Shown here piece after piece: positions 40,845 through 63,972 of a stretch of DNA of 64,000 nucleotides (its first letter is position 1; each line of letters begins with the position of its first letter). Position numbers and translations under genes: made by a program. Under the pieces are notes generated by a model that saw only the letters and a list, made by a program, of their open reading frames with translations, was not told the DNA's origin and did not search any database. The DNA is from Candidatus Thalassarchaeum sp. (GTDB lineage: Archaea > Thermoplasmatota > Poseidoniia > Poseidoniales > Thalassarchaeaceae), in contig JAKUOA010000006.1 in the NCBI GenBank assembly GCA_022451235.1, forward strand, positions 44,413-108,412, read 5' to 3'.

Positions 40845-41726
40845 TCATTGCTCTAGCAATGGAACCAATTCTTGCTTCTCTTGACTCTCCTCGGTACCGC
40901 TAGCATGGTATCTTGAGTGCATTAGTATGGGTACAATTACACAGCTTAGAGGTAGTAATCCCACAATTACGTATGCTGTAAATTTAGGTAGAGTTAATCG
41001 TTCCTCTACTTCAACCCAAACCTGAACAATCATATCTCCATCAACAACAGATGCATCATTTGGTCTGCTATTGTTCCAATTATCCAGAGCGAGGAAATAT
41101 TCTGCATCACTATTATCTCCAAACCAAGAAATGAATGCCTTGTTGTCGTTATCTAGAGCTGTGGAAAAACTAGTGCTCCGTTTTTCTTCATAGGCATGAG
41201 CGTCTCTGAAGGGAAGAAACACGACCATATCTCGCCATTCAACAGGAATCATATCTATTACCTCCTCCGGAGTCTCCCAACCTTCGGATGTCATTTCATA
41301 TTCATCTTGGTACCTTCTCCAATTCGCGGAATCAAACAGGTATACGTCTCCTTTCGGATCATCGGTAGGTGGATTATCTGGGTCGGAATTAAATTCAACA
41401 CAGAAGGTATACGAATATCCGGTAACCAATTCCAAACGAACCGCTTGAGCATAATTTCTTTGCAAATCGATTTCAACATACAAATCTTCAGTAAGAGGAA
41501 GTAAGTCGGTATTTTGGTTTGGTTGCTGCCCCCACCAATTCCATGGATTCTCATCAACCTCAACGACTTCTGCTACAGAGGAGTCAAATCCAACATCAAG
41601 AGGTACTGAGCAATCCTCTCCTGAGGCAACAACCGGACTAGTTGTCGCCAATAAAATTGCCAACATCGGTACAATTAGTCCAAAACTAAATCCACTCGCA
41701 AAGAGCTTTTTCAGAATTTCATGCAC
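40845..41726 (-). CDS. Hypothetical secreted, C-terminally anchored protein, translationally coupled to the upstream giant metalloprotease
   Basis: It has a signal peptide and a C-terminal TM (VIVGLLPLSCVIVPILM). Its start overlaps the stop of the 41729..45835 ORF by 4 nt. Confidence 0.5.
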   Translation of the reverse strand: MHEILKKLFASGFSFGLIVPMLAILLATTSPVVASGEDCSVPLDVGFDSSVAEVVEVDENPWNWWGQQPNQNTDLLPLTEDLYVEIDLQRNYAQAVRLELVTGYSYTFCVEFNSDPDNPPTDDPKGDVYLFDSANWRRYQDEYEMTSEGWETPEEVIDMIPVEWRDMVVFLPFRDAHAYEEKRSTSFSTALDNDNKAFISWFGDNSDAEYFLALDNWNNSRPNDASVVDGDMIVQVWVEVEERLTLPKFTAYVIVGLLPLSCVIVPILMHSRYHASGTEESQEKQELVPLLEQ

Positions 41727-41728
41727 CC

Positions 41729-44700
41729 TCAGCGCCTCCGAGTTCTAATTGGGCGGACGTATCCGGACTCCTTGTTCCTTCGCTCGTCAACCGTCAGATA
41801 CTTCGGTTGTGGGGGTGGATTGTGTTGATCCATACCTGGTAGCCCGCCTTCCGCTTCTACTTCCTGAACATCGTAGGTATCAAGCATTTCCTCGGCATCA
41901 ATCTCCTCTTCATCTTTCTGCCTCATAACTAGCCAGCCGAGCAGCATTACCATGGCGACGAGTGCTAGGAGGCCACCGCTCTCTTTGTTTGGAACGAAGT
42001 CCTTCCAAGTCAATTCATCCCAAGACTTCTGTCGATCTTCTTCTTCGGCAGAAAGTACACTGATAATATAGTCCTCTGAAGTGCATACACCAACTCCGTC
42101 ACATACCTGTAAAACAAGACGAATTTCACCGGTTTCGCCCCAAGTCATATTGCCCCAAAGGAAGTCGTTTCTAGGGTCACCATCTTGATCTACATCGTTC
42201 AATGCATTGAGGTCCCAATAGACACTAAGTTCACTGGTCAAACTTGTGTCCTTATCATTTGTAGAGACTCCATCGCCATCACTATCCTCATCAGCATTTA
42301 CATCTAGCCATGCTTCTAATCCCTCAATCAAATCAATGTCATAAGCACTATGGTTCAGAATAACTAAGTCACCTTCGTTGACATAATCTGAATCAATCGG
42401 GTCTATTGGATCTATTTCCGGTGCTCTTGAGACGTGTACTGTAATGGAGGTAGTATTGGTATCTCCTCCTTCGAATCCATCAACAACAGTCAGAGTTACT
42501 ACGTAGGTTCCGGGGCGGTCCCAAGAGTGCCAAACCACGGGTCCTTCGACTTGTGGAGTTGCGTCACCAAAGTCCCAAATCCATCTTGTTATTCCATTCC
42601 ATTCAGAGTTCTCAGGATCTGTGGAGTCCCTTCCAACAAATTTCGGGTCAGAATCATAACTTTCTGAACCATCAAATTTCAGGGGGCAATTTGGAGCGAT
42701 AAATGCACCTCCGTCGGCGGCAAATGGAACCCACCAAGTAACATCTTCATCTGAGCTAGGGATTGAATTAAGTGCGCTTCCATTAATACTTGGTTGTAAA
42801 AATTCAACCATGGGGACAGGAATAGGATTGGCGATTCTGACCTGGTATGATTTGGTGGCAGATTCAGCGCCTCTTTCATCAATAACAGTCAACGAAATAG
42901 TATACAACCCAGGCTCTGTGAAACTATGATATACTGTAGATGTGTTTTCTATTTCTTCATCCATTCCAGTGATGTTCCATCGAGTTTGTAACAATGACGT
43001 ATCCCCATCAGGATCGAAGGATAAACTCTCGAACAAATACTCGGTTTCAACAGTGCCATCAGAAGGACTAGCAAATACTGCCACAGGCCTCTGATTCAAC
43101 ACTCTAACAACTATGCTTGCAGAAGATACATTGCCATCGTCATCAGTTACCTCTAAAGTGACAGTTTTGAGACCTGGAGTATTCCATCCAACGGTTGGAT
43201 TTTGGTTTACTGAAGTAGTTCCTGAAAAGTCGGAGGTCAGTGATATTCCTTGGCTTGAGAAATTAACACCGGATTCAAACTCCCATCGATATTCAACAAT
43301 TATTCCGTCATCATCAGTAAATATATCTGGTAATGTCAGAGGTGTTAGGGTGTAAGTTTGAAGTTCGTAATCGAAAATTTGCCGAGGTAGCCTATTCAAT
43401 ACTCTAACGTATACCTGATGTTCCACAATGAATGTTCCATCATTGATTGTAAGGGTCAAGGTGTAAACAGTCCCATCTGCACTCCCATCGACGTATGCAT
43501 GACTAGCTTCTACTAGACCGAGTCCACCTTCATCGCTTCCATCACCCCAATTCCAAGTAAAGTCTATTTCTTCATGTGGGACATTATCTACGGTACTTCT
43601 TGCAGAGAACAATACCCTCTGGTTTGTCAATAAGACTATTTCATCAGTTATTGTTACTCCATCTACTCTAATCTCGGGAATAGGCTCCGTAGTGTCTGCA
43701 ACATTTACCGTCCAATATTGGATTTCAGAGTAGAATCCTCCAATGTCTTCAACGGTGAGTGCTACGGTGTAGTTTCCAGGCTCCTCGTAGATGTGAACAG
43801 GATTCTTTAGCCCTGATGTAGCATTGTCTCCCAAGTTCCAATTGTATGCTATTGGTGTCTCATTGTGACCGTATGAACCATTCATTAGTCCGAACCCCCA
43901 TACATCGTATCCTCCGCCGAATAGGCTGACTGGTAACCAAGTCTGAGTAATTGAGGTTGAAGTCGACCCACTTGCAACCGGTTTCAAGTTTCCAAGTTGT
44001 ATTGGTAGCGTAAATGCGGTATCGGTAACTTCGCCACTAATATCTCGAATGTCAACTCCAAATGTCCAATCGCCAGTATATGGTGGGGTAAACCAAATGG
44101 TTTCCTCAGTAGGAATGCTGTTCCCTGCAGTCATTGAGAAAGTAATGGAATCAGTAAGCGTGTTGTTCACGAATGCCTCAAAGGTGACTTCGATAATTTC
44201 AAAGAAAGCATTGGATGTAACTTGTAACTCAATTTCCACACTATCGTCTAAGTTATCTTCGTCACGATCGAACGTAGTGACCGAGATTATGTCAACTTCA
44301 GCAGGGTCGGTAATTATGCCTGCTTGAACAACGATATCTGTGGTTGGATAAGAGCCAGTAGTTATTCCACAACTAGCAAAATTGTAATCGCAATCAGTTA
44401 CCTGAGATTCATACCAAGCAATTACCCAAACTTCGTCGGTGGTATTTCCAAATCCATGTACAAGACCGGTTCCTGCACCCGTAGCCGAGTCAATTCTCAA
44501 TCTATTCATTGTCCAAGTTCCAGTAGCGGAATCTTTTGCCATAACGGTTCCAGCGACGCCAAATTGAGTTGGTTGAACCATCAGATTGAGTGGCGCCCCT
44601 GTTCCACCTGAGAATTTGTAGGCCCGCATTCCCCAACCTTCAAGCTCCTGTGTGGGACTAGTCCAAGTCGATTGCCACTCATCGCGGTAGCCACTCATCT

Positions 44701-45835
44701 GGACTTTGCAAATGTATCCAGTAACGCATCCTGCAGTCATTGCAATATTGGAAAATCCAAATGCGCCTTGCGCACTATCTAGAGCCACAGCAGCGGTGAA
44801 ATTTGCGAAAATATCAGACATTGTCGTTCCTATTGCAGTTGAACCTGGTTCTGGATTTCGAGCCAAGTTTTCCACCCCGGCTCCACCTGTTGCAGTATCA
44901 GAAACCAATCGAGAGATCGCGGTGCCACCACCGAGCTTGTCTGCTAGGTACATTACAAACATGAAGCCACCACCGTAATCTGCGATTCTTTGATTCCACC
45001 ACCTCACACTCATGTTGGAATTCTGAGACCATTCGTTTGCATGACCAGACAACGTACTAGTAACGCCAAAGCAAAGGTAGGCCGCCATATCCGCGGCTCC
45101 CTCATCTAACCAGATGTATTCGTATGGGTCTCTGGCATTGTGTAGAAGGTGTTCTAATTCGTGAGCAAGTATCGTATTTCTCCAGCTCATATCGCCAGAG
45201 TCAATGAATAGGATTTCTCGCTGACTTGCAATATTGGGGTCAAAGTATCCTCCAATACCCCCTCCGCCATCGATTTGGAAAATTAAAATTTCAATTTGAC
45301 AATTGTTGTCTACATCAGGTGGATTACCAAAGTATGTCGTATCTGTTGGGTAGATGGTCGATTCCCATGTTGAGGTGATGTCATTTAGAGTAGTGGATGA
45401 AATCACCACATCATCCTCGACGAATATAGCCGAATTTGTTGAAATTTTCCTCACTGTTGCACTCACTGAACCACTTGAGGTAGAGAATGTGTCAGTGTCA
45501 TCAACTGACCATGCATTTTCGCAAGATCGGCTACTCGATCGCATGTTTTGGTAAGTTGGTGAAAATGGTTCAATCAAGTTAGGATAGTCGTTCTCAATCC
45601 ATTGCTTTTTGAGATAGCCAAATGCGGAGAAAACGGGGTTGTCTGGGTCATTGTAAATGTAGGCATGACCATCGTTTGCCGGGTCGAAATCACTCAAGTC
45701 ACCTGCTACAACCTGAATTTCTTCGTCAGTCGAGTCGTCACTTGCACTAACCAATGGTAGCATTATCGAAGCTAGCATAAGCCAAACTAACAACAACGTA
45801 GTTGTTGATTTACTTGAACTACTGAAAGTCCTCAC
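41729..45835 (-). CDS. Giant secreted zinc metalloprotease (HEXXH...E gluzincin, M6/InhA-like) with multiple PKD repeats and a C-terminal TM anchor
   Basis: It has a signal peptide. It contains ILAHELEHLLHNARDPYEYIWLDEGAADMAAY (HExxH plus a downstream Glu). PKD signatures include TWNWGDGSDEG and RWIWDFGDATPQVEGPVVWHSWDRPGTYVVTLTVVDG. The C-terminus reads LLALVAMVMLLGWLV followed by an acidic/basic tail. Confidence 0.75.
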   Translation of the reverse strand: MRTFSSSSKSTTTLLLVWLMLASIMLPLVSASDDSTDEEIQVVAGDLSDFDPANDGHAYIYNDPDNPVFSAFGYLKKQWIENDYPNLIEPFSPTYQNMRSSSRSCENAWSVDDTDTFSTSSGSVSATVRKISTNSAIFVEDDVVISSTTLNDITSTWESTIYPTDTTYFGNPPDVDNNCQIEILIFQIDGGGGIGGYFDPNIASQREILFIDSGDMSWRNTILAHELEHLLHNARDPYEYIWLDEGAADMAAYLCFGVTSTLSGHANEWSQNSNMSVRWWNQRIADYGGGFMFVMYLADKLGGGTAISRLVSDTATGGAGVENLARNPEPGSTAIGTTMSDIFANFTAAVALDSAQGAFGFSNIAMTAGCVTGYICKVQMSGYRDEWQSTWTSPTQELEGWGMRAYKFSGGTGAPLNLMVQPTQFGVAGTVMAKDSATGTWTMNRLRIDSATGAGTGLVHGFGNTTDEVWVIAWYESQVTDCDYNFASCGITTGSYPTTDIVVQAGIITDPAEVDIISVTTFDRDEDNLDDSVEIELQVTSNAFFEIIEVTFEAFVNNTLTDSITFSMTAGNSIPTEETIWFTPPYTGDWTFGVDIRDISGEVTDTAFTLPIQLGNLKPVASGSTSTSITQTWLPVSLFGGGYDVWGFGLMNGSYGHNETPIAYNWNLGDNATSGLKNPVHIYEEPGNYTVALTVEDIGGFYSEIQYWTVNVADTTEPIPEIRVDGVTITDEIVLLTNQRVLFSARSTVDNVPHEEIDFTWNWGDGSDEGGLGLVEASHAYVDGSADGTVYTLTLTINDGTFIVEHQVYVRVLNRLPRQIFDYELQTYTLTPLTLPDIFTDDDGIIVEYRWEFESGVNFSSQGISLTSDFSGTTSVNQNPTVGWNTPGLKTVTLEVTDDDGNVSSASIVVRVLNQRPVAVFASPSDGTVETEYLFESLSFDPDGDTSLLQTRWNITGMDEEIENTSTVYHSFTEPGLYTISLTVIDERGAESATKSYQVRIANPIPVPMVEFLQPSINGSALNSIPSSDEDVTWWVPFAADGGAFIAPNCPLKFDGSESYDSDPKFVGRDSTDPENSEWNGITRWIWDFGDATPQVEGPVVWHSWDRPGTYVVTLTVVDGFEGGDTNTTSITVHVSRAPEIDPIDPIDSDYVNEGDLVILNHSAYDIDLIEGLEAWLDVNADEDSDGDGVSTNDKDTSLTSELSVYWDLNALNDVDQDGDPRNDFLWGNMTWGETGEIRLVLQVCDGVGVCTSEDYIISVLSAEEEDRQKSWDELTWKDFVPNKESGGLLALVAMVMLLGWLVMRQKDEEEIDAEEMLDTYDVQEVEAEGGLPGMDQHNPPPQPKYLTVDERRNKESGYVRPIRTRRR

Positions 45836-45894: not shown

Positions 45895-46959
45895 ATGGAG
45901 CATCGTTCGGACGCCCCCGGCCCAAAGGGCCGTGCCTTCAGTAATAGGGGGGAATATGGAACCCGAACCTCAGTACTAGTCATATTCTGTATTTTTTTAT
46001 CAGTATTTTCTCCCGTTTCGAGTGTAGTTTCTCAGACTTCAGAAGTATGGCAAGTTGTAGTTATTGAACCAGAATTAATCGGTCAAGTCCCCCATGATGA
46101 ATCAGCCTTTACTCAAGGCTTGGAAATCCACTCTGGAAAATTCTATGAAAGTACTGGACTATACGGTGAATCTAGCGTTAGAATAGTCAATATGGAAACG
46201 GGTCAAATTGAGACTCAGTACAACCTTTCTGATGATTATTTTGCTGAGGGATTAACAATTTGGAATAATTCGATAATCCAACTTACATGGAAAGAAAATA
46301 TAGCATTTATTTACGACACTGATTCATTGCAGCAAATTGGTAATTTTTCTTATCAGGGAGAGGGCTGGGGGGTCTGTAATTTTGATGAATCAGGATTATG
46401 GTTTTCAGATGGTTCAGGCCACCTAAAATATTCCAATAATTCAACAGTTTCATTCACCAATTCATTGGAGGTTTTAGTGGGTGGGGGACCAAGCGAGCGT
46501 TGGAATGAATTGGAGTGTATCGATACTAACGAACACATACTCGCGAACAAGTGGTTTGACGACTCGATTTATTTGATTCAAATCTCAAATGGCTATGTCT
46601 GTCAGAAGGTAGATTTTAGTTCGATTCGAGAAGAATTTGAGTCAGAATCTTCCGGGGTATTGAATGGAATTGCCCAAGATCCAGAAACCGGCAATTATTG
46701 GGTTACTGGCAAAAACTGGTCGAATTATTATGAGGTAAAAATTGACTTTTCAAACCTGTCAACCAATTGCCAAATTAACTCCTCCAGCGTCCCTCCCGTC
46801 GATTGTCTAGATTGTGAGGAAGAAAACCAAATCGGGATAGTGTACGCAACGATTTTATTAGCACTAATTTGGCTCACATATACGTCAATATCAAAGCGGC
46901 AAACTGAGAAGCCGCCGATTATCAGCAAGGACGAGCAGGAGGGTGGCGAGGATGTCTGA
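45895..46959 (+). CDS. Glutaminyl-peptide cyclotransferase (plant/bacterial beta-propeller type), membrane-anchored
   Basis: It contains HDESAFTQGLEIHSGKFYESTGLYGESSVRIVNMETG, the QC PF05096-type signature (FTQGL...YESTG.YG.S). It has N- and C-terminal hydrophobic segments. Confidence 0.7.
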   Translation: MEHRSDAPGPKGRAFSNRGEYGTRTSVLVIFCIFLSVFSPVSSVVSQTSEVWQVVVIEPELIGQVPHDESAFTQGLEIHSGKFYESTGLYGESSVRIVNMETGQIETQYNLSDDYFAEGLTIWNNSIIQLTWKENIAFIYDTDSLQQIGNFSYQGEGWGVCNFDESGLWFSDGSGHLKYSNNSTVSFTNSLEVLVGGGPSERWNELECIDTNEHILANKWFDDSIYLIQISNGYVCQKVDFSSIREEFESESSGVLNGIAQDPETGNYWVTGKNWSNYYEVKIDFSNLSTNCQINSSSVPPVDCLDCEEENQIGIVYATILLALIWLTYTSISKRQTEKPPIISKDEQEGGEDV

Positions 46960-54237: not shown

Positions 54238-54717
54238 ATGGATGATGGGGATGAACTAGCTGAGGCATATCGTCTACAAGTTGAGGCGATTATGCAAAAG
54301 GAGGCGGAAAAGAGAGTTTTAGAGGCTAACGATCCAGCAGAGCTGGATCGACTTCGTTCTTTGTCTCTAATAGAGTTGGTACAAAGTGACCACCCCGATC
54401 TAATACCTGCCCTGATGTCTAGACTCGGTCCGGTTAGAGCTGCTCTCGATGGCCATGGTGGTGGACTAATACTGGCAAAATCTGGTGTTGAGAAAATGCA
54501 TTCCGGAACAGATGCATTATCACTGGTCATCGATTTGGATGGTGCTTGCGTCTCCTGTGGGGCTGCACCGGGAACTCTGAAAGGAATCCAGGATGATTTA
54601 TTGATCGATGATGAAGTATTATCTGTGAGTTTTTCTGCTCAGATGTTGGAATGGTTTGATGATTTACAACGCGAGTTTGTGTTAAAGCACGGCGGAGTAA
54701 CTTTTGTTGAGGTGTGA
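54238..54717 (+). CDS. nfu: NifU/Nfu-like Fe-S cluster scaffold domain protein
   Basis: It contains LDGHGGGLILAKSGVEKMHSGTDALSLVIDLDGACVSCGAAPGTLKGIQDDL, the Nfu C-terminal-domain signature with CxxC. Confidence 0.75.
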   Translation: MDDGDELAEAYRLQVEAIMQKEAEKRVLEANDPAELDRLRSLSLIELVQSDHPDLIPALMSRLGPVRAALDGHGGGLILAKSGVEKMHSGTDALSLVIDLDGACVSCGAAPGTLKGIQDDLLIDDEVLSVSFSAQMLEWFDDLQREFVLKHGGVTFVEV

Positions 54718-55184
54718 ACTTGGACGCTGAAAGACTTGAAGCTCTTCGTTCTGCTCACCAGGCAGATGGAGTGCGACGCTCCAAACGTCACTCTGTTAGG
54801 GTCGAAGATTACCTTGAGGTCTTACATGAATTAGAACTGGTTGAAGGTCGGGCAAAGCCTGCACGAATTGCAGAATCATTGGCAGTCGCTCGACCTTCCG
54901 TAACTAAGATGTTGCAAAGGCTAGACGAAGAAGGTCTGGTTGAGTACAAACGCTATCATGGTGCCGTCCTTACAAGAGAAGGCAGAATAGCCGCGGCAAG
55001 TTTACGCGAAAGACATAGCCTTTTAGTCAGATTTCTAATCGTTCTTGGAGTAGATGAAGAAACTGCGCATATCGATACCGAGGGTATCGAACATCATTTT
55101 CACGAAAAGACCCTTGATGCTCTCAGTAGATTGGTAGAAAAAGCGGAGACCGACCCCGATTGGTGGGGGTCTCGTAATCGATGA
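54714..55184 (+). CDS. DtxR/MntR-family metal-dependent transcriptional regulator
   Basis: It contains VEDYLEVLHELE...ARIAESLAVARPSVTKMLQRLDEEGLVEYKRYHGAVLTREG, the DtxR N-terminal HTH pattern. Its start overlaps the nfu stop. Confidence 0.8.
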   Translation: MNLDAERLEALRSAHQADGVRRSKRHSVRVEDYLEVLHELELVEGRAKPARIAESLAVARPSVTKMLQRLDEEGLVEYKRYHGAVLTREGRIAAASLRERHSLLVRFLIVLGVDEETAHIDTEGIEHHFHEKTLDALSRLVEKAETDPDWWGSRNR

Positions 55185-55188
55185 AATC

Positions 55189-55821
55189 CTATATTGATTC
55201 TAATTGAGAAATTGCAGTTGCTGCAAAGCCGAGCACTGTTACTTCCTCTCCTTCGACTAATCGAGTATCAAGAGAGGCAGCACCTGCCAAATCATATGCC
55301 CCTGCCTTTCCTTTCCACGACTCGCTACTTACCAATTCAATGAGTCTCTCTTGAGACAATTCGTCGAATTCAACAACTGCTGAATCCGTCCAAATATCTG
55401 CGCTCCATCCACCATGAAGTGAATGTTCACCGTCGCCATTTGGAGGATATACTAGGGCGGTTGAGGACCATACACGATGTCGGTTTCCAGAAAGTCTCAG
55501 GAGCATAGCCATGGCGTGTTGTTCATCCTCAGGTTTTCCCATCGGCATTAATGGGTCATCAGGGTCAGCAACAATGGTGTCTGAAACGATCACAACTTCG
55601 GCTAATTTTTTTCCCGCCATTTGGCTTACAACACCTTCTCTAGCGGCCGCTTTCGCCTTGGCAGCACAGGTAAATTCAACCTGTTCATTTACTGGCGCAC
55701 CCCAGCGTGGTTTCGGTTCTTCGAAAATTAATGCAGCGGCGCTTAGTTCGAAATTTGCAAATCTTTCTTTCAACCAAGTCAAGCGTCTTTCAGAAGCAGA
55801 TGCTAAATGCAATCTGCGCAT
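55189..55821 (-). CDS. maf: Maf-like nucleoside triphosphate pyrophosphatase
   Basis: It has the N-terminal motif LHLASASERR (cf. Maf LILAS.SPRR). It is 210 aa. Confidence 0.75.
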   Translation of the reverse strand: MRRLHLASASERRLTWLKERFANFELSAAALIFEEPKPRWGAPVNEQVEFTCAAKAKAAAREGVVSQMAGKKLAEVVIVSDTIVADPDDPLMPMGKPEDEQHAMAMLLRLSGNRHRVWSSTALVYPPNGDGEHSLHGGWSADIWTDSAVVEFDELSQERLIELVSSESWKGKAGAYDLAGAASLDTRLVEGEEVTVLGFAATAISQLESI

Positions 55822-55830
55822 GATTAACCC

Positions 55831-58800
55831 TCATAGATTAATTCGAAATGCACAGATAGGACAACGCGTCATTTTTAGGTCGAATGCGACATCAAATTGA
55901 CTCCCACATTCTGGACAAAGCACTGGCTTGTTCAAGGGAGGGAGTCCAGGTAAAGTCGTTGCATCTCCCATCGGCGGTAATGGCTTAGCGACCACCCCGT
56001 CGTTTGTTGCAGTCTGTGTCATTTCTGGTATAGTCGTAGGTATTTCAGCCATCTCTGGTTGTGTTGTTCGCCGTTGTCGTCTTTCCCGTCTTGGTGATGT
56101 GTTCTCTACATTGATATCTACAACTTCGACAATGGAAGAAGTGTCTATTGCCTCAACGGGAATATCATCCTCATCGATAACATCCACTACATCATCTTCC
56201 AACATAATAACTCCTTGAACGCTTTTTCTTCTCCGACCACCGATCCAACGTATTGCACGTCCTGACATTACCGCCAAAACAATGGTACAGAGCAACAAAA
56301 CCGCAATTGCCACTCCGCCGAGTAAAATATTGAAACTTCCTTCGTCTAAACCAAGCTGGAATCGGAGTTCTTCTAGAATGTCCGTTGGACCTGTGTTTGG
56401 CTTACTATCGTCAATTACTGCCCTTATGACCCAACCTTGGGTTGAGGTGTGAATAATCACAGCCTCACCACTCGCAGATGAGCGACTTACTGAATGTAAC
56501 CAACCATCAGAAATCCGATTCGATATTGCCATCCAAGGAGTCTCTGAATTAATCATTCCGTACTGAACTTGAGGTCCACCTGGGCCCACCATATCATGCA
56601 TTACTTGAATTCCTCGAGAGGTTTCTATGAAGACAATTTGAGACAGACCTCTAGCAGAGAATTGCATAGAAGAATTTTCTATGATGTTGAAGGTATCATC
56701 AACTATACGAGTGATTAGTTCACTATCTATTCCCTCTCCCTCTTTCCAAGCAACAACTAGTCTATCTTCTTCGTCTATTGTGTTCACCTTCATCTGGGGC
56801 AAAGAGGCATAATCGCCGACCGCCTTCTTGTAAGTCCACGATGATTGTTTGATATCTCCATGAGCATACCAAAGACCTAGTCGGTCATTTCCTGTGGTGT
56901 CGTTACGCATTGATTGGTAGAGGATATGACCATCCTCCTCGCCATACTCAATTTGTACTGGATCTGTATACCCCGCAATCACATCGATATCAGAAATAGC
57001 ATTTGGAGTAAGTCTCCAATCGTTAGAAGAAGTGGGAGCGTCTGCTTCTAAGATGAATATACTAGTTAGATCCTGAAAACTGCCGCCAGTCAACAAGTCA
57101 CGATGATATCCAGCAACTAATAATTTTGTTCCATCAACATCGATGTCGATACCCCAATATTTACCATCGGATAATAGAATTGGATCCATCAAATCTTGGA
57201 TTGGTCGCATCTCACAAGCAGAGTCTATTGTGGAGTATGAAACCGTCTGCTTAAGATAACCACTAGTATCTAGGAAGCGCCGACTCCAAACTATGTGTGC
57301 GATACCATCTGAGGTAGGGGCCGCGACAAAATCACCAGACCATTTTTCTTCCAACATATTTGAGCAGGCAGTCATTCCTTTGTTGGAGTTGAGTCTGTAA
57401 AGCGCCAGCCCTCCATCTTTCGATGTTACGACAATTCCTTCTCCATCTAAGTCGATTACTTCGACGGGTGTTTCTCCAGTTTGGAAGTTTAATCCTCTTC
57501 CTCCTGAGACTGTGCTCTTTTCGATCAGTATGCTCCATTCTGCTTGATTATTTGACCAGTCGATATCCGATAGAACAGGTCCGCTAAGGCTGATTCGGAA
57601 TTTGAAAGCGCCACTTTCTTCATTTGTTTGGGCGAATGAAACTGTCTCAGCATAACCACCTTCTATTCTAGGGATTGTAGTTGAGGAGGTTAACTCCCAT
57701 CCTCTTTCAGTGTAAAGGTGGAGTTGCGCCTCTATTTGTTCAGCAGCTGATGAACCTAAATTATCTACACGGGCATTAATTTTGAACTGCTCTCCCGGTC
57801 TTGGAATTGTAGGAGTGGTGGTAAATGCGCCGTTTGAAAAAGCCAAATCGACTCCTTCCGGTCTATCAATCACATCAAATTCAATACTTTGGTCATTATT
57901 TGTCTCATCGATTTCGAGTATTGCATCACCTGGGTCTAAGGCGATACTAAGCTCACGTTGACCTACAGATAGAGGATTCCAGTAAAGTGTCACATCTACA
58001 ATATCGCCGGAGTCGATTGTGGGTATGGTCAACTCATATTTTCTGGTACCTTCCTCAAGTAGGAAAACAACGACATTAGTAGCTGATTCATCGCCATCAT
58101 TACGAATTTCAGCGCTAACATCGACGAAGGAGTTAACGTAGGTTTCTGACAGAGGTATACCCCATTCTGATACAGTTATTCCACTTCTGAACATCAAGTC
58201 AGGAGCAGGTGGTTGATTATCGATATCCAAAGTGACCCTGACTTCCTCAGAGCGAACACTTGTGCCACTGACGAAACGTAATGATATGCGATGTGAACCG
58301 TCTGGATGTTCGGTAGAATCCCAAATGAAATTGAACATATCCGTTGTGCCACCTGAGCCAGTGTAGGTTCTTTCATCAACCCAATCTTCCTTACCTATTC
58401 GCCACTGCAGGGTGCCACCATTAACGGTTTCATATTCGCCTTCAAATTGGACATTACCTTCAACGAAATTTTGTCCACTTGGGCTGTCCAAAGTTAGAGA
58501 TACTCGACCAATATCGTGATTTTGTCTTTGTTTATTGCTCCATTGATCCCATTCATTACGAGCCTGTACCGAGATTTTGATTTCCAAGGCGTTAATTTCA
58601 TCCTCTTCAAAGTCAGGAATAGAGAAATCAGTAGTCCAATTTACTGTGCCTTGAGCAGTGTGCCAATCGACAAGAATTTCTTCCTGAGTCGGCGACCCCT
58701 CAGGTTTGTGGGTGTAGGTGATTTTGACCTGAACTTCTTCTATCGTTCCATTTGTCTCCGCATCTTCGTCGATATGCCCTCTGACTGAATAGGTCTCACC

Positions 58801-60633
58801 TTCTACTAGCCAAGAATCCTCAATCGGCCTTTCATAAACTAACCAATCACCCTCTCCTGGAGGTGGCGGTTCTGTTGTGTTCCCTCCTCCGTTATTTCCT
58901 CCACCATCTCCTAACAGAGCGGATAAAATCAGATTCCCATCAATTATTCCAAATCCATATTTCTCATTCCAAGTATCCGAAATATCTGGTTCAGATGCCT
59001 CCCCCTTCGGTTCGGAATTTTCTCTCAATAATTCCTTTACTTCGGCAGGATTCAGATCTAGTCCTTCCTCTTCGCTAATTTGTAAAATCACTGCTACCAA
59101 ACCTGCTACTGCGGGACATGCCATACTCGTCCCACTCATTTCCGTATAGCTATCTTCAGCAAGTGGTTTTGGTGTACCAGGTAATTGGCTTGATGAAGCA
59201 GCATGCGCTGCAGAATTCATATCGCTTCCTGGTGCTACCACGTCTGGCTTGAGTTCCTCTTCTCTGTCGTCGTCCCCATCGTCTTCTCTAGGGCCGGAAT
59301 TAGAGTATGAAGCAATCGAATCGTCGCCTCTATCGATGGTATCTTTATCATCAATTGACCCAACTGTAATTGCTTGGTCTGCGGCTCCTACAGAAGTGAC
59401 CCTTCTTCTTCCATCATTTCCAATCGCTGCGACGGGAACTATACCTGCCTCAGCCGCTTGGTTTACCGCACGGGCGTCTGCAGCAGACCCGTTATCTCCG
59501 GGGTCATCGCCATTTGGATCACCGAGGCTACCGAAAGACATTGACATGACTTGGATTCCTTCGCTAGAGTCATTATTACCCCAGTCGGTATCTACATTGG
59601 CAGCTACCCAATTTATTCCCTTTAGTGTTGCAGCGGAATTGGTGCCCCCTGTATCAGTCATGACTTTGACATCCACTAGGTATGCGCCTGGGGCATAACC
59701 CTGATTTATTCGTCTTGAATCTCCTGTGCCAAGTGCAATTCCTGCTACATGAGTCCCATGTCCATCTCCATCATCAGGATCGTGCGTGCCTTCGTTATTG
59801 CATTCATTTTGATTCAACGAAGTGGCATCACAACCGGCGATCCACTTTGGGTCTGGAAGATCTTCGGGATCATTCTCATTATCATCGTTATCATCCGAAA
59901 AATCGTCTAAGGAGAAGTGTTCATTATCGACTCCTGTATCGAGAATAGCAATTACAATCCCCGAACCATCGTAACCGAAGTCTCGCATAGTTTCGTCATA
60001 TCGTTCTGAATCTCGTACCTTGGAACCTCTAGTAGCGGTATCTAGTGATGGAACAATTACATTCTGTTCCTCGACCATAACAACCCCATCAAGTTGCCAA
60101 ATCTCAATTAAAGCACTAACTGGCACATGGTCGAGAACTATACTGTCTAGAATATCCATTTCGAAGAACCAAGATCCCTCTTGCTCCCAACCATGAGATT
60201 CGAGAACTTCTCTTAGAGCAGCCGTATCGCTAGGGCCTGGGTGCCAAGCGTAATCAACAACGATTGCAACAGTAGGTCTACCATCTAGTCCAATTATTGC
60301 TGTAGAGGAAACTGATTCACGTTGACCAGCGATGATTCTTTGCAAACGATCATCCATACCATCAGAATCCAAATCGTACCAATAGCTGAACCACCACCCC
60401 TCTTCCTCTACAGGGAATCCTGCATCAAAGGGAGGACTTCTAACAGATCTATCTATGGGGTCGCATATGACCTCTCCACACATTAATGCAGGTGGCCAAT
60501 TTCCCGGCCTTTCTTTGCTAGGCAAATCTTCGGTTTGAATGGCTGTGGATGCAGATACCCCTACTCCCATATCCATGACTAGAATCATTGCAACTAGCAC
60601 CAGCGGGGTGAGGTTTAGGCGTCTTCCAGACAT
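55831..60633 (-). CDS. Giant (1600 aa) secreted subtilisin-like serine protease (S8) with CARDB-like and beta-rich domains, a C-terminal TM and a cytoplasmic Zn-ribbon tail
   Basis: It has a signal peptide. The catalytic residues are all present: Asp (IAILDTGVD), His (HGTHVAGIALG), Asn (AAIGNDG) and Ser (GTSMACPAVAGL). It contains a CARDB-like ILEIDETNND. The C-terminal TM reads LGGVAIAVLLLCTIVLAV. The tail ends CPECGSQFDVAFDLKMTRCPICAF. Confidence 0.85.
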   Translation of the reverse strand: MSGRRLNLTPLVLVAMILVMDMGVGVSASTAIQTEDLPSKERPGNWPPALMCGEVICDPIDRSVRSPPFDAGFPVEEEGWWFSYWYDLDSDGMDDRLQRIIAGQRESVSSTAIIGLDGRPTVAIVVDYAWHPGPSDTAALREVLESHGWEQEGSWFFEMDILDSIVLDHVPVSALIEIWQLDGVVMVEEQNVIVPSLDTATRGSKVRDSERYDETMRDFGYDGSGIVIAILDTGVDNEHFSLDDFSDDNDDNENDPEDLPDPKWIAGCDATSLNQNECNNEGTHDPDDGDGHGTHVAGIALGTGDSRRINQGYAPGAYLVDVKVMTDTGGTNSAATLKGINWVAANVDTDWGNNDSSEGIQVMSMSFGSLGDPNGDDPGDNGSAADARAVNQAAEAGIVPVAAIGNDGRRRVTSVGAADQAITVGSIDDKDTIDRGDDSIASYSNSGPREDDGDDDREEELKPDVVAPGSDMNSAAHAASSSQLPGTPKPLAEDSYTEMSGTSMACPAVAGLVAVILQISEEEGLDLNPAEVKELLRENSEPKGEASEPDISDTWNEKYGFGIIDGNLILSALLGDGGGNNGGGNTTEPPPPGEGDWLVYERPIEDSWLVEGETYSVRGHIDEDAETNGTIEEVQVKITYTHKPEGSPTQEEILVDWHTAQGTVNWTTDFSIPDFEEDEINALEIKISVQARNEWDQWSNKQRQNHDIGRVSLTLDSPSGQNFVEGNVQFEGEYETVNGGTLQWRIGKEDWVDERTYTGSGGTTDMFNFIWDSTEHPDGSHRISLRFVSGTSVRSEEVRVTLDIDNQPPAPDLMFRSGITVSEWGIPLSETYVNSFVDVSAEIRNDGDESATNVVVFLLEEGTRKYELTIPTIDSGDIVDVTLYWNPLSVGQRELSIALDPGDAILEIDETNNDQSIEFDVIDRPEGVDLAFSNGAFTTTPTIPRPGEQFKINARVDNLGSSAAEQIEAQLHLYTERGWELTSSTTIPRIEGGYAETVSFAQTNEESGAFKFRISLSGPVLSDIDWSNNQAEWSILIEKSTVSGGRGLNFQTGETPVEVIDLDGEGIVVTSKDGGLALYRLNSNKGMTACSNMLEEKWSGDFVAAPTSDGIAHIVWSRRFLDTSGYLKQTVSYSTIDSACEMRPIQDLMDPILLSDGKYWGIDIDVDGTKLLVAGYHRDLLTGGSFQDLTSIFILEADAPTSSNDWRLTPNAISDIDVIAGYTDPVQIEYGEEDGHILYQSMRNDTTGNDRLGLWYAHGDIKQSSWTYKKAVGDYASLPQMKVNTIDEEDRLVVAWKEGEGIDSELITRIVDDTFNIIENSSMQFSARGLSQIVFIETSRGIQVMHDMVGPGGPQVQYGMINSETPWMAISNRISDGWLHSVSRSSASGEAVIIHTSTQGWVIRAVIDDSKPNTGPTDILEELRFQLGLDEGSFNILLGGVAIAVLLLCTIVLAVMSGRAIRWIGGRRRKSVQGVIMLEDDVVDVIDEDDIPVEAIDTSSIVEVVDINVENTSPRRERRQRRTTQPEMAEIPTTIPEMTQTATNDGVVAKPLPPMGDATTLPGLPPLNKPVLCPECGSQFDVAFDLKMTRCPICAFRINL

Positions 60634-60702
60634 GGCTCTGCAAGCAGAGCCAGCGTAGTTCGGGGTATAAGCCGAACCCGTACAAGAGCCATCAAGAGGC
60701 CA

Positions 60703-61680
60703 TCATGGCCAGTTGATATGATTTTTCGAGTGAGCGCATTTTAGGGTACAATTCTGCCCTGATATTACAGCATGAACCTCTCCGCTACAAACAGGGCAGA
60801 GTACCTGTTCTGCAAGCTCCTCTAACCAGGCTCTTCGAGTCTCAAGTTCATCACCTTCTTCTCTAAGCCTCTTGAGTATTCTAGCAGCCTCCTCTTTCAA
60901 ACCATCCCCTGCTTCTGACCAAGGGTCCGAATCAAGACTACCCATCTTCGCAGTGGCCGCTTCTCTTGCCGCCTTCGATGCCGTAGAACCCGCTATGGAA
61001 ATATCGCTGGAATCATCTAATTTCGACGGTGCGCCTCTAGCGATTGGTCTTGCTAAAATCCAAGCAAGCATAAATCCTCCAAGATGGGCCATATGCGCCA
61101 CATTTGTTACTGATTGTTCTGCTTCGATTTGGTACACATTCCAGACTTCAATACCTAGTCTGAATGCTACAATTCCCCAAACAGGCCAAGCTCGAATGAT
61201 GAAGAGCAGAGGGAATTCAATACGATCATTCGGCCAGCAAGCCATGTAAGCCCCAAGAATGCCGAAGGCCGCCCCACTCGCACCAATGGCGGGGCTTATC
61301 GAATCAGGATGGGTTAGCACCCATGCGATATTGCCTCCTAATAGACCAAGGAAGTAAACCAATATCCAGCGTAATTTACCCATTCGTTGTTCAAGGGGAA
61401 CACCTGCTAGAGCGATCACCAATATATTACCTAGAACGTGAATCCAATTTGCATGAAGCCAAGCACAGGTAATAAATCGATGAATCTGGTCGGGATGATC
61501 TGCAATTTTTGGGATTATTGAAAGAAAGGCAATAGGTGTAAAATCGAGGAACCCCATATCGATAATCATCTGAAAGAAAGTTACCAATAATAATGATAAA
61601 ACTGTGGCTAGGGCTATGCTTGTATCTTGTTTCCAAGCTACGATATATGGTGTTGTTGCAATTACTAGAAACAACACCAA
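60703..61680 (-). CDS. Rhomboid-family intramembrane serine protease with a C-terminal cytoplasmic coiled-coil and Zn-ribbon extension
   Basis: It has the GxSG motif AIGASGAAFGILGAY and the catalytic His helix AHLGGFMLAW. It has 6 TM helices. The 125-aa C-terminal tail ends LCPVCSGEVHAVISGQNCTLKCAHS. Confidence 0.85.
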   Translation of the reverse strand: MVLFLVIATTPYIVAWKQDTSIALATVLSLLLVTFFQMIIDMGFLDFTPIAFLSIIPKIADHPDQIHRFITCAWLHANWIHVLGNILVIALAGVPLEQRMGKLRWILVYFLGLLGGNIAWVLTHPDSISPAIGASGAAFGILGAYMACWPNDRIEFPLLFIIRAWPVWGIVAFRLGIEVWNVYQIEAEQSVTNVAHMAHLGGFMLAWILARPIARGAPSKLDDSSDISIAGSTASKAAREAATAKMGSLDSDPWSEAGDGLKEEAARILKRLREEGDELETRRAWLEELAEQVLCPVCSGEVHAVISGQNCTLKCAHSKNHINWP

Positions 61681-61828
61681 TGCCGCCCAATCAGACCCTG
61701 TTAGGTCGGACCAAACAAACTCATAATCTGCGGTAGCCAGCTCTCTCCCTCGGGCCTCGACAGAGCCTCTATGTGCATAGGGACTTCGATGGAACTACTC
61801 AAACGCAGGCTGCTAGTGGGGGATTATC

Positions 61829-63235
61829 GTGAGCGCGCGAACTTTGCTCTCAGCCCGAGGGTTGGTTGTTGATCGAGGCGCCCGAAAGGTGCTTCGAGAT
61901 GTTGACTTTTCACTCTCTGAGGGTGAGGTCGTTGGTTTGTTGGGAGTAAACGGTTCAGGAAAGTCCACTTTGTTAGAATCGCTTGCAGGATTACATCCAA
62001 TGACTGGCGGAAGTGTTCAAAGAAACGACAGGGGATTTGAAACTACGGTTAGAGACTCGGAAGGTCAGCGTGGAGATATCTCCGGTTTTGGCCTTTGTTT
62101 GCAAACTGAGGGGATGTCTGGTGACGAAACAGTACTCGAAAGAATTCGTGGTGCTTGTAGAGTTGCTGGACTTGCAGATAACTCAGAAGCACTCAATGAA
62201 ATAATCTCAGAATGGGGCCTTGGACACCGAGCAGATGATAGAATATGCAAACTCTCTGGTGGTCTACGCAGAAGAGTTGCAGTTCTGTCCGCAATTGTTC
62301 CAGTTGCTCTGAATTCTGAGCCATCGGTAGTTCTTCTTGATGAACCATCAGAGGGACTCGACCAATCATCTCGAGGACAGTTGTTAGGGTGGTTAAGAGC
62401 ACTAGCAATGAGAGGCCATGGGGTTCTAGTTGCGACTCACGACCCTGAAGTCATAACCGCTTGCGACAGAACTGTCACCATCAGCGAGACCTCAGAATTG
62501 ACAAGTAAGGTACAGGAATCAAACCTAGAACATACAAATCTTCCAGATCCCTCCGCATCAGAATACCATAGAGAATTAGTTGCTTGGACTTGGAGACTTG
62601 AAAGACGCAACCCAATCGATACAATTGGACGCGGAGTCCCTGCCTTGGTCGCCTTATTGCTAGCATTTACACTGTCTACAGATATCGCTAGGAGCAGTGA
62701 AAATTATGATTTGTTAGCCGCTCTAATTCTAACCCCTGCTTTCATCACAGCTATTGTTACTCCAGCTATTATCAAACGACTCGCAGAAGAGAGAGCGGGA
62801 GATTGGTGGAGGGCAATGACCGGTGCCAGCTCAAGAGGCTGGTTTTCCATAATGGGTGTCTCATTGATTCTACCACTGCCAATAATTTACATCTCATGGT
62901 TTGTTATTGCCGACGATACAGCATTGGAAGCAATGAATTCTGATGTTATGTTGTGGCTGTGGTTATTCGCGTTCCTAATCATTGACCTAAGTGTGGCCGC
63001 TTCGGCTTTGCATCTGATGGTGTCCGATCTTACTAGAGCCGGTGCTGTAGCGGGAATTTTATTGCAGCTAGTTCTAATCTGGCCATTCCTGCAAATGACT
63101 AGCGCTCTGACTTCGATAATGAGCAATGGAATGAGTTTTGAATTAGCGCTAGGTGAACCTATTGCAGACATCGCTATAGCATGGCTGACTGTGGTTTTAT
63201 TGTGGGCAATGGCAGTCATCATCCCTGAGGATTGA
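61829..63235 (+). CDS. ccmAB: ABC ATPase fused to a permease domain, CcmA-CcmB-like (heme exporter). It uses a GTG start.
   Basis: It has the Walker A motif LLGVNGSGKSTLLESL, the signature LSGGLRRRVAV, and the Walker B motif VLLDEPSEGLD. The C-terminal half has about 6 TM helices. It lies immediately upstream of a CcmC-like gene. Confidence 0.6.
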   Translation: MSARTLLSARGLVVDRGARKVLRDVDFSLSEGEVVGLLGVNGSGKSTLLESLAGLHPMTGGSVQRNDRGFETTVRDSEGQRGDISGFGLCLQTEGMSGDETVLERIRGACRVAGLADNSEALNEIISEWGLGHRADDRICKLSGGLRRRVAVLSAIVPVALNSEPSVVLLDEPSEGLDQSSRGQLLGWLRALAMRGHGVLVATHDPEVITACDRTVTISETSELTSKVQESNLEHTNLPDPSASEYHRELVAWTWRLERRNPIDTIGRGVPALVALLLAFTLSTDIARSSENYDLLAALILTPAFITAIVTPAIIKRLAEERAGDWWRAMTGASSRGWFSIMGVSLILPLPIIYISWFVIADDTALEAMNSDVMLWLWLFAFLIIDLSVAASALHLMVSDLTRAGAVAGILLQLVLIWPFLQMTSALTSIMSNGMSFELALGEPIADIAIAWLTVVLLWAMAVIIPED

Positions 63236-63972
63236 ATGGTGAGAAAATGAATTTTCGTGATTCCGGTTATGCTCTGACATATCTTGGACTTGCAGGTATC
63301 GTATTTGTTGCAATTCTTGGTTTGGAGTACGCTCCCGGGTTGAAACCATGTACTGGAGGGGGTTGTTGGGGGGCTCCAGAAGCCTACAGAATTCTCTATC
63401 TTCACGTCCCATTTGCTTGGTGTTCATTCTTATCTTTCAGTATCCTATTTTATGGCTCATTGATGTGGTACCTCAAGCGTAGTGAAGACGCTTGGGTTTA
63501 CTTTCAGAGTGGGTCCGATCTTGGTGTAATTTTTGGATTAGGAGTAATTACTTCCGGACCAATTTGGGCATCTGCAGAATGGGGCCGGCCTTGGGATTGG
63601 GGTGATATGAGACTCAATTCCTTCGCCTTACTCACTGCGGTTGCTTTGTTTCTAGTATATTCTCGTCAATCTCAACCCGACACACAACAAAACCGAGATA
63701 CTCTATCAGCAGTTGGTTTGTTCGGCTTCGCCTTAGTCCCGATTACTGCCGGTGCAACCACTTGGTGGGACACTACTCATCCTGAAGTTTTGATTGTAGA
63801 GTCAGGCGAAACATTAGGAATGAGTCCTGAGGTACGATCATTCCTGCTAATCAGTTTTGGACTAATGTGCATTTTATTCACGGGTTTACTAATACTTTCA
63901 AACAAACGATATCGCCTTGCTGCGGAGGTGTCTAGTAGAAAGAATGAGCTTGATCAGGAGGCGATATCTTGA
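63232..63972 (+). CDS. ccmC: Cytochrome c-type biogenesis protein CcmC (heme lyase/exporter WWD family)
   Basis: It has the WWD motif AEWGRPWDWGDMRLNS and conserved His in flanking loops. It overlaps the upstream stop (ATGA). Confidence 0.8.
   Translation: MNGEKMNFRDSGYALTYLGLAGIVFVAILGLEYAPGLKPCTGGGCWGAPEAYRILYLHVPFAWCSFLSFSILFYGSLMWYLKRSEDAWVYFQSGSDLGVIFGLGVITSGPIWASAEWGRPWDWGDMRLNSFALLTAVALFLVYSRQSQPDTQQNRDTLSAVGLFGFALVPITAGATTWWDTTHPEVLIVESGETLGMSPEVRSFLLISFGLMCILFTGLLILSNKRYRLAAEVSSRKNELDQEAIS

Follow-up and report, generated by a model that had tools for sequence, protein, structure and literature searches.

The 64,000-nucleotide (nt) stretch of contig JAKUOA010000006.1 from Candidatus Thalassarchaeum sp. 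analysed here (hereafter the window) encodes, in order on its minus strand, a rhomboid intramembrane serine protease and, after a 69-nt spacer, a 1600-amino acid (aa) subtilisin-like protease of family S8 with a predicted C-terminal transmembrane (TM) anchor (Table 1). We give roughly even chances to the rhomboid processing the C-terminal anchor of this adjacent exo-enzyme, in what would be an archaeal analogue of the rhombosortase/GlyGly-CTERM pairs. The evidence comes from the order of the genes, their domains, signals of membrane topology, conserved residues and a parallel set of pairs in which the same rhomboid clade adjoins exoproteins with PLD domains. A first-pass annotation of the window had placed both open reading frames (ORFs) at the same coordinates, co-oriented and 69 nt apart, which was confirmed, and had proposed that the rhomboid sheds the S8 protease. 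Synteny, topology, an invariant glycine in the anchor (G1440) and the PLD parallel favour this proposal, as comparative support for a predicted cleavage.

The names of homologs and of 80 species-representative genomes place the window in Marine Group II (MGII; Poseidoniales, Thalassarchaeaceae/MGIIb), the closest genome to the window being MED-G37 at 97% identity. The Poseidoniales loci examined comprise 86 from Thalassarchaeaceae and four from deeper clades including Poseidonia, and the synteny check that the first-pass annotation had called for showed the rhomboid followed by S8 (Rho-S8) in all 90 loci examined. All 86 Thalassarchaeaceae loci share the order CcmC-ABC / Rho-S8-(Maf)-(DtxR)-NifU-SufC-SufB. 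The pair is also kept in all four deeper clades, where the rhomboid is 40-46% identical to that of the window and the two genes are separated by +84, +32, -10 (an overlap, locus L089) and +170 nt. The genes after S8 differ between MGIIa (GlmS and others) and MGIIb while Rho-S8 stays constant; the upstream ABC-CcmC block is also kept in the deep clades. In a fifth deep clade, a gene encoding more than 1054 aa lies 137 nt downstream of the rhomboid in the same orientation; it is an S8 candidate only.

Relatives of the rhomboid with its zinc-binding (Zn) tail were sought by a profile search of 1.8 billion cluster representatives. This revealed many archaeal rhomboids of 290-340 aa that end in E..VR.AW[IL]E.F....CPxC-x9-12-C.(C|..H), and those outside Poseidoniales were placed, by their source names, in other Thermoplasmatota. 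The module that defines this clade lies at the cytoplasmic C-terminus, where an amphipathic helix (R..AW.E) leads into a terminal Zn knuckle. None of the Zn-tailed rhomboids outside Poseidoniales has an S8 neighbour. In 11 distinct contigs an exoprotein gene lies immediately upstream, with its stop codon 9-54 nt inside the rhomboid ORF. These exoproteins (480-1300 aa) feature a signal peptide and LTD, CARDB and PLD domains, and their C-termini consist of [DS]YKN, a TM segment and [ASV]RDWR[KR]R[KQER]W[TR] (e.g. 'RDWRKRKW'), so that the cytoplasmic end is about nine residues long and contains no Cys. The RDWRKRKW-type motif does not occur in the other 2.06 Mb of DNA compared, and the NCBIfam -CTERM and sorting-signal models gave no match to the PLD C-termini; RDWR[KR]R[KQER]W[TR] is proposed only as a candidate new C-terminal sorting signal, encoded with its putative processing enzyme. 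A third cargo type is found at locus L106 (98-6823), a 2241-aa protein with cupredoxin and M36-peptidase-like regions, a TM segment and then RRREDA, whose gene ends 94 nt upstream of a Zn-tailed rhomboid (L106:6917-7789). The PLD lineages are sediment and freshwater (non-marine) Thermoplasmatota, and most PLD-rhomboid loci have a convergent signal-peptide peptidase (A22B/SPP) gene just downstream.

Generic tail-less rhomboids provided a control: in the same scan, 0 of 32 loci had a co-oriented adjacent C-terminally anchored protein. With identical automated neighbour criteria, the positives were 71 of 82 loci in Poseidoniales and 5 of 13 for the other Zn-tailed rhomboids, but this classifier under-detects the Thr/Tyr-rich PLD anchors, and the motif count (11 contigs) is consequently the better measure for the PLD pairs. 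Judged by gene neighbourhood, the Zn-tailed rhomboid clade is tied to an adjoining exo-enzyme with a predicted C-terminal anchor, a profile that the Poseidoniales S8 fits. More tentatively, and at somewhat less than even chances, there may be a so far undescribed Thermoplasmatota-wide sorting or shedding system in which Zn-tailed rhomboids recognise the anchor of the adjacent exo-enzyme, presented as YKN-TM-RDWRKRKW in the PLD proteins and as a TM segment plus ribbon tail in S8.

The S8 protein matches PF00082 (Peptidase_S8; 172.6 bits, E 1.4e-50), with its catalytic triad in subtilisin order (D232, H296, S503) and N405 as the oxyanion residue. Its predicted topology is N-out/C-in and single-pass, which is the orientation that rhomboids cut, and the mean Kyte-Doolittle hydropathy of the TM segment peaks at 2.9. 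Across 76 orthologs, conservation is 0.65 in the TM segment, 0.62-0.65 in the ectodomains, 0.45 in the signal peptide and 0.36 in the middle of the tail. The extracellular juxtamembrane motif is conserved to the level of the folded ectodomains, with R1424, L1427, G1428, L1429, D1430 and F1434 each at least 90% conserved, and G1440 is invariant. The TM segment starts with LLGGV in the window, with LITGV or LVIGV in orthologs and with ILGLS, ILGGSG or IAIGIGAS in MGIIa, where the outer halves are Gly/Ser-rich. Of the helix-breaking residues that the first-pass annotation had suggested looking for, G1440 and the Gly/Ser-rich outer halves in MGIIa were found, whereas conservation of the 'GG' was not. 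Taken as sequence features, these are compatible with a recognised TM segment, but their information content is low. The ∼385 residues between the CARDB domains and the anchor (∼1031-1415; window 56378-57542) have no Pfam match and show a conservation of 0.65, like CARDB. A twin-arginine reading of the N-terminal 'SGRRLNL' was dropped, as ortholog N-termini carry no consistent RR motif.

The earlier description of the S8 C-terminus, with a single TM segment and a cytoplasmic tail ending in a CxxC-x14-CxxC ribbon, holds. The ribbon is located 6-8 residues from the C-terminus in 73/73 unique MGIIb S8 tails, so it is not a chance feature, and its two CPxC knuckles at conserved spacing have the pattern of a C4 zinc ribbon, a predicted metal site. 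The four deeper clades, Poseidonia (MGIIa) among them, all keep the signal peptide, the C-terminal anchor and an acidic, basic and Pro-rich tail of 170-220 aa that closes with a ribbon; the ribbon spacing in MGIIa is x15, and the first knuckle at L090 is CxC. Comparison of the ribbon with Pfam families (DZR, Zn_ribbon_3 and others) gave E-values of 0.04-0.2 and 12-14 bits, below the cutoffs of ∼27. One knuckle superficially resembles C2H2 finger linkers, as 'KPxxCPECGxxF', but no stretch passes. Among the ORFs of at least 100 aa in the window, only those of the rhomboid and S8 finish in Cys knuckles of this kind.

The rhomboid matches Pfam PF01694 (MEROPS S54) over residues 64-211, at 100.1 bits compared with a cutoff of 22.6 bits (E 1.6e-28). 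Its catalytic residues are intact: H81 and N85 (HxxxN, TM2), G133-A-S135-G (GxSG, TM4) and H199 (TM6), and the catalytic Ser and His as well as HxxxN are invariant across 47 sequences. From these residues, the enzyme looks catalytically intact and active. An AlphaFold2 model built with the 47 sequences (pLDDT 92, pTM 0.77) has a GlpG-like core, where the top 10 Foldseek matches were all GlpG (TM-score ≤0.76, normalised to GlpG). The listed ORF probably lacks its first residues. Orthologs are 345 aa long and begin with M-A-T-A-D-Y-E-F, while the codon at this start position is CTG in the window and in six close or sister species, TTG in L016 and ATG in other clades. The 20 upstream codons differ from those of sister genome L008 at five sites, all of them synonymous, so the extension is probably translated to give a 345-aa protein, with the predicted true start at CTG 61738-61740. 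The conservation of these 20 N-terminal residues in the window, where they have no canonical start codon, suggests CTG initiation or another unusual start. With the extension the protein has 1+6 hydrophobic helices, and the tail after TM6 is predicted to be cytoplasmic with or without it.

This cytoplasmic tail required several corrections to the first-pass annotation. The extension is ∼113 aa after TM6 rather than 125 aa, and the motif given as CxxC-x14-CxxxC is actually CPVC-x12-CTLKC. Furthermore, the third Cys (C311) of the proposed four-Cys set (CxxC...CxxxC) is kept in only 68 of 83 unique orthologs. Residues C295, P296, C298, C315, H321, W324 and P325 are invariant in all 83 unique tails, which gives the conserved pattern CPxC-x16-C-x5-H-xx-WP, and in one deep clade (P0122) H321 is replaced by Cys. 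A C3H ligand set (C295, C298, C315 and H321) is therefore likely on the basis of conservation. Across 47 rhomboids from Poseidoniales and other Thermoplasmatota, W285, C295, C298 and C315 are invariant. Residues 250-325 were modelled with high confidence (AlphaFold2 pLDDT 91-97) as three helices and a beta-hairpin knuckle, with the hairpin at 301-315. Structure comparison found no such tail in any solved rhomboid, and Pfam and PDB sequence searches with both the rhomboid and S8 tails returned nothing above threshold. The helix-plus-Zn tail is ancestral to the whole rhomboid clade and predates the pairing with S8.

The first-pass annotation had also suggested that matching Zn ribbons on the two tails mediate pairing. 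The two modules differ in kind, because the rhomboid set is C3H with an unconserved third Cys and the S8 set is C4. Given this difference, the greater age of the rhomboid module and the absence of Cys from the cytoplasmic end of the PLD cargo, this idea is unsupported. A related alternative is a stable, non-proteolytic partnership, where the rhomboid would bind the S8 TM segment and tail, with the Zn modules making the contact, and control its trafficking, stability or activity, as iRhom2 does with ADAM17. The iRhom/ADAM17 complexes (PDB 8snl and related) are indeed among the structural neighbours of the rhomboid model and likewise pair a rhomboid fold with a single-pass anchored protease, with a regulatory cytoplasmic tail, and both proteins of the window carry conserved, predicted cytoplasmic Zn modules. 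With the Suf/NifU distance removed, the rhomboid tail has its highest partial distance correlations with S8, at 0.58 for the TM region and 0.52 for the tail, though its value with the ABC gene is 0.56 and that of the rhomboid core with ABC is 0.70, so the covariation is not specific. We regard such a partnership as highly improbable: iRhom2 is catalytically dead and shares no specific relation with the window rhomboid beyond the rhomboid fold, whereas the active site here is complete, and the same tail is also found in rhomboids paired with PLD cargo, which lacks a cytoplasmic domain. An identity as an iRhom- or Derlin-like pseudoprotease was rejected for the same reason, as the Ser and His are invariant.

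If the rhomboid does process its neighbour, S8 would be exported by Sec and stay anchored in the N-out/C-in orientation until the TM segment enters the active site of the rhomboid and is cut close to G1440, within its outer half. The 1430-aa ectodomain would then be released or handed to another anchor, leaving behind a stub with the acidic, basic and Zn-ribbon tail, and in the cytoplasm the rhomboid tail could serve for docking or regulation. We infer that cleavage happens, where it happens and what follows from it, as well as any role of the tails. The rhomboid may be dedicated to S8 or may act on several type-I anchored proteins, S8 among them; it could serve several, because the window encodes further proteins in which a signal peptide is combined with a C-terminal TM segment. 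These include a 1368-aa PKD-repeat protein (41729-45835, minus strand) whose TM segment starts with SGGLLALV and whose 62-aa acidic, Pro-rich and basic tail ends in RTRRR, a membrane-anchored glutaminyl cyclase (45895-46959, plus strand) and a 293-aa protein without assigned function (40845-41726, minus strand). C-terminal TM anchoring seems to be a general mode of surface display in this organism.

The Rho-S8 spacer is nearly fixed in length, with 54 of 72 species at 68-69 nt and 63 of 72 within 62-70 nt; in the remainder it is longer through insertions. It contains a BRE/TATA-like box of the form GGTT-n4-TTA(T/A)AC, in which TTA(T/A)AC starts 36-37 nt from the S8 ATG in 72 of 73 unique spacers and 35 nt from it in the other. 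A palindrome with the almost invariant form TGGCTCT-N4-6-AGAGCCA ends at the S8 ATG. It has one match in the window compared with 0.01 expected. Of the 86 MGIIb loci, 80 contain exactly one copy, without exception at the start of S8; MGIIa loci lack it. The palindrome stem is invariant in sequence and shows no covariation, and the z-score of the whole spacer is -1.9, so a structural RNA was not preferred over a promoter plus operator. A tRNA or known RNA was rejected, as the spacer contains no tRNA and has no Rfam match at E≤1. The elements are probably an S8-specific promoter and operator, and standard archaeal promoter geometry would place the transcription start inside the palindrome. The two genes are therefore separated by a conserved promoter-like box belonging to S8, which argues against a simple Rho-S8 operon but not against a functional pair.

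Several observations weigh against anchor processing by the rhomboid. Cleavage is a prediction from sequence comparison. Within Poseidoniales, the CcmC-ABC-Rho-S8 block is collinear and functionally unrelated housekeeping neighbours (NMD3, PGI) are equally conserved, so adjacency there is weak evidence, and Thalassarchaeaceae synteny was rejected as uninformative proof of linkage for this reason. Close spacing carries little weight, as S8 is only 9 nt from Maf and tight packing is general in Poseidoniales genomes. The TATA-like box and palindrome of S8 mean that co-transcription with the rhomboid is not needed, and rate covariation of the rhomboid with the S8 TM segment or tail does not exceed its covariation with the ABC gene. 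The 'GG' of the S8 TM segment is not conserved, S8 matches neither GlyGly-CTERM nor any other -CTERM model, and at least three other proteins in the window with a signal peptide and C-terminal TM segment are equally possible substrates. Finally, the gene order is Rho-S8 as opposed to cargo-Rho in the PLD pairs, and S8 has a 140-220 aa tail, unlike the PLD proteins.

Another alternative is that the two genes are conserved neighbours only, with the rhomboid serving another role, such as membrane-protein quality control or the cleavage of other substrates, S8 being a permanently anchored protease of the cell surface and the ribbon tail having an unrelated function, e.g. localisation or partner binding. 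The collinearity of the whole region, housekeeping genes included, the separate promoter-like element and operator-like palindrome of S8 and the non-specific rate covariation all agree with this alternative, and there are precedents in prokaryotic rhomboids such as YqgP, which performs quality control of unlinked substrates (PMC7231995), and in archaeal RhoII, which affects glycosylation and pilins and has no neighbouring gene involved (PMC9263693). We nevertheless consider it rather unlikely. The same rhomboid clade is overlapped by a PLD exo-enzyme gene in 11 contigs and accompanied by a third cargo at L106, while generic rhomboids gave no such neighbour at any of 32 loci. In addition, Rho-S8 stays together although MGIIa and MGIIb differ in what follows S8, and the S8 TM segment and juxtamembrane motif are conserved to the level of folded domains.

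The closest known parallel to anchor processing by an adjacent rhomboid is the rhombosortase (RrtA) system, whose rhomboid-family enzyme adjoins its single target; this target is a secreted hydrolase, in many cases a protease, and basic residues follow its C-terminal TM segment. In genomes with a single target, the gene for the GlyGly-CTERM protein lies no further than one gene from that of the rhombosortase in 16 of 21 cases (PMC3237569). The general idea put forward in the first-pass annotation is hence not new, as dedicated rhombosortase systems have been described by this very signature, a rhomboid encoded beside the one target that it has, with a C-terminal anchor (PMC3237569). A full-text literature search found no paper linking MGII, a rhomboid and S8. 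Adjacency of this type was found at 90 of 90 Poseidoniales loci and in the PLD pairs of 11 contigs. The window rhomboid is not itself a member of the rhombosortase family, because it scores 41 bits against a cutoff of 84, no GlyGly-CTERM domain is present and the host is archaeal. Three further differences are that the S8 protein does not end after its anchor but continues into a tail of 140-220 aa with a Zn ribbon, that rhombosortases have no cytoplasmic helix-plus-Zn tail, and that cleavage and any lipid attachment are hypothetical here.

This parallel raises the alternative that the rhomboid removes the anchor for sorting and not for shedding, with the new C-terminus joined to a lipid or envelope component and the protease retained at the surface. 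Rhombosortase TIGR03902 is the best NCBIfam match of the rhomboids of the window, L104 and L106 (41-47 bits; 41.1 for the window and 43.8-47 for two non-marine relatives), the PLD cargo has the three-part layout of a sorting signal (motif, TM segment and basic end at the extreme C-terminus), and the Vibrio cholerae protease VesB, which is cleaved by rhombosortase, is lipid-modified and surface-retained (PMC6219818). However, these scores are well under the curated 84-bit cutoff and the MGIIa ortholog at L087 has no match. Neither S8 nor the PLD proteins match GlyGly-CTERM (NCBIfam), and a GlyGly-CTERM-like reading of the S8 TM start 'LLGGV' was rejected, with G1440 the only conserved residue of the pair and no -CTERM model matched. 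Moreover, the putative S8 signal is not at the extreme C-terminus but is followed by a 140-aa tail, and no transferase candidate was identified. We consider sorting of this kind improbable.

Processing of the S8 anchor by the rhomboid would also resemble the secretase-type rhomboids that shed type-I proteins, such as Drosophila Rhomboid-1 with Spitz, apicomplexan ROMs with adhesins and Providencia AarA with TatA. Common features are an active rhomboid with a 6-TM core and a substrate that crosses the membrane once, N-out/C-in, and whose TM segment has small, helix-destabilising residues in its outer half. To our knowledge, the substrates of secretase-type rhomboids are not encoded beside the enzyme, and none is a giant protease with a Zn-ribbon tail. 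A precedent for an active rhomboid with a cytosolic metal-binding regulatory domain is Bacillus subtilis YqgP, where the extra domain binds divalent metal (Mn/Zn) and modulates substrate cleavage (PMC7231995); metal binding by the window rhomboid is a prediction. The YqgP domain differs in being N-terminal and unrelated in sequence, and its substrate MgtE is a polytopic transporter encoded elsewhere in the genome, on which YqgP acts together with FtsH (PMC7231995). Among archaeal membrane proteases, Haloferax volcanii RhoII and the archaeosortase ArtA/PGF-CTERM are implicated in the maturation of cell-surface proteins and ArtA removes a C-terminal TM signal, but RhoII has no validated substrate or linked cargo gene and ArtA is not a rhomboid (PMC9263693). 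PGF-CTERM-type models gave no match to the S8 or PLD proteins.

Table 1. Coordinates of the rhomboid, S8 protease and spacer features in the window, and of related loci
Feature	Position	Strand	Details
Rhomboid intramembrane serine protease ORF	60703..61680	-	325 aa as listed, TTG start
Probable rhomboid N-terminal extension	61681..61740	-	20 codons, start CTG 61738-61740
Rhomboid cytoplasmic tail	60706..61035	-	Residues 216-325: flexible linker, DPW motif, acidic helix LREEGDELETRRAWLEELAE, Zn knuckle
Rhomboid candidate Zn-binding knuckle	60718..60798	-	C295-P-x-C298...C315...H321, likely C3H
BRE/TATA-like box GGTTCGGCTTATAC	60665..60678	-	Rho-S8 spacer, 37 nt upstream of S8 ATG
Palindrome GGCTCT-GCTTGC-AGAGCC	60634..60651	-	Abuts S8 start codon; candidate operator or leader element
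S8 subtilisin-like protease	55831..60633	-	1600 aa, type-I membrane protein
S8 signal peptide	60538..60633	-	Residues 1-32; hydrophobic 6-32 then VSA/ST; predicted from sequence
S8 catalytic domain	58948..59967	-	Residues 223-562, Pfam PF00082
S8 CARDB domains	57544..58161	-	Residues ∼825-1030, PF07705, E 5e-20, two stretches
S8 extracellular juxtamembrane motif R-x-x-L-G-L-D-E-x-S-F	56332..56364	-	Residues 1424-1434
S8 C-terminal TM anchor	56260..56331	-	Residues ∼1435-1458, invariant G1440; proposed rhomboid cleavage region
S8 cytoplasmic tail	55834..56259	-	Residues 1459-1600; basic RAIRWIGGRRRK, acidic LEDDVVDVIDEDD, RRERRQRR, Pro-rich stretch, ribbon
S8 terminal zinc ribbon CPEC-x14-CPIC	55852..55917	-	Residues 1573-1594, six residues from C-terminus
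PLD-rhomboid loci	L091-L094, L096-L098, L100, L102-L104, L107		e.g. L104:3210-6983 PLD, L104:6959-7921 rhomboid

The surroundings of the pair differ on its two sides. Neighbours downstream of S8 are variable (window 54714-55821; loci L003, L028 and L030 onwards): a DtxR-family repressor occurs in the subclade of the window only, and a few genomes (e.g. L003, L069) lack Maf, which in MGIIa is displaced, GlmS being the gene that comes ∼10 nt after S8 there. Two overlapping genes diverge from the rhomboid (61829-63972, plus strand), one for a 468-aa ABC ATPase with a fused 6-TM domain and the other for a CcmC-like protein of heme handling, and this ABC-CcmC block adjoins the rhomboid in all Poseidoniales loci.

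Marine Group II are among the most abundant archaea of the surface ocean. All MGII genomes carry extracellular S8 proteases, which are thought to drive protein degradation (PMC6864105), and no archaeal rhomboid has a validated substrate (PMC9263693). What is plausibly new here is a variant of the dedicated rhomboid-cargo pair, and such a hard-wired gene pair offers a directly testable candidate substrate for an archaeal rhomboid. If the proposed Thermoplasmatota-wide system is correct, S8 and its counterparts would be the first natural substrates assigned to any archaeal rhomboid, and cleavage in Poseidoniales might leave or free a Zn-ribbon cytoplasmic fragment that signals surface proteolysis to the cell. 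The PLD/RDWRKRKW pairs are a further lead of comparable interest to the Rho-S8 pair, as recognition of an RDWRKRKW-type signal by the same rhomboid clade would mean that the rhombosortase concept, so far one of Gram-negative bacteria, also applies in archaea, where the recognition module would be new. Whether S8 is cell-bound or shed as a public good would alter models of the role of MGII in marine carbon and nitrogen cycling.

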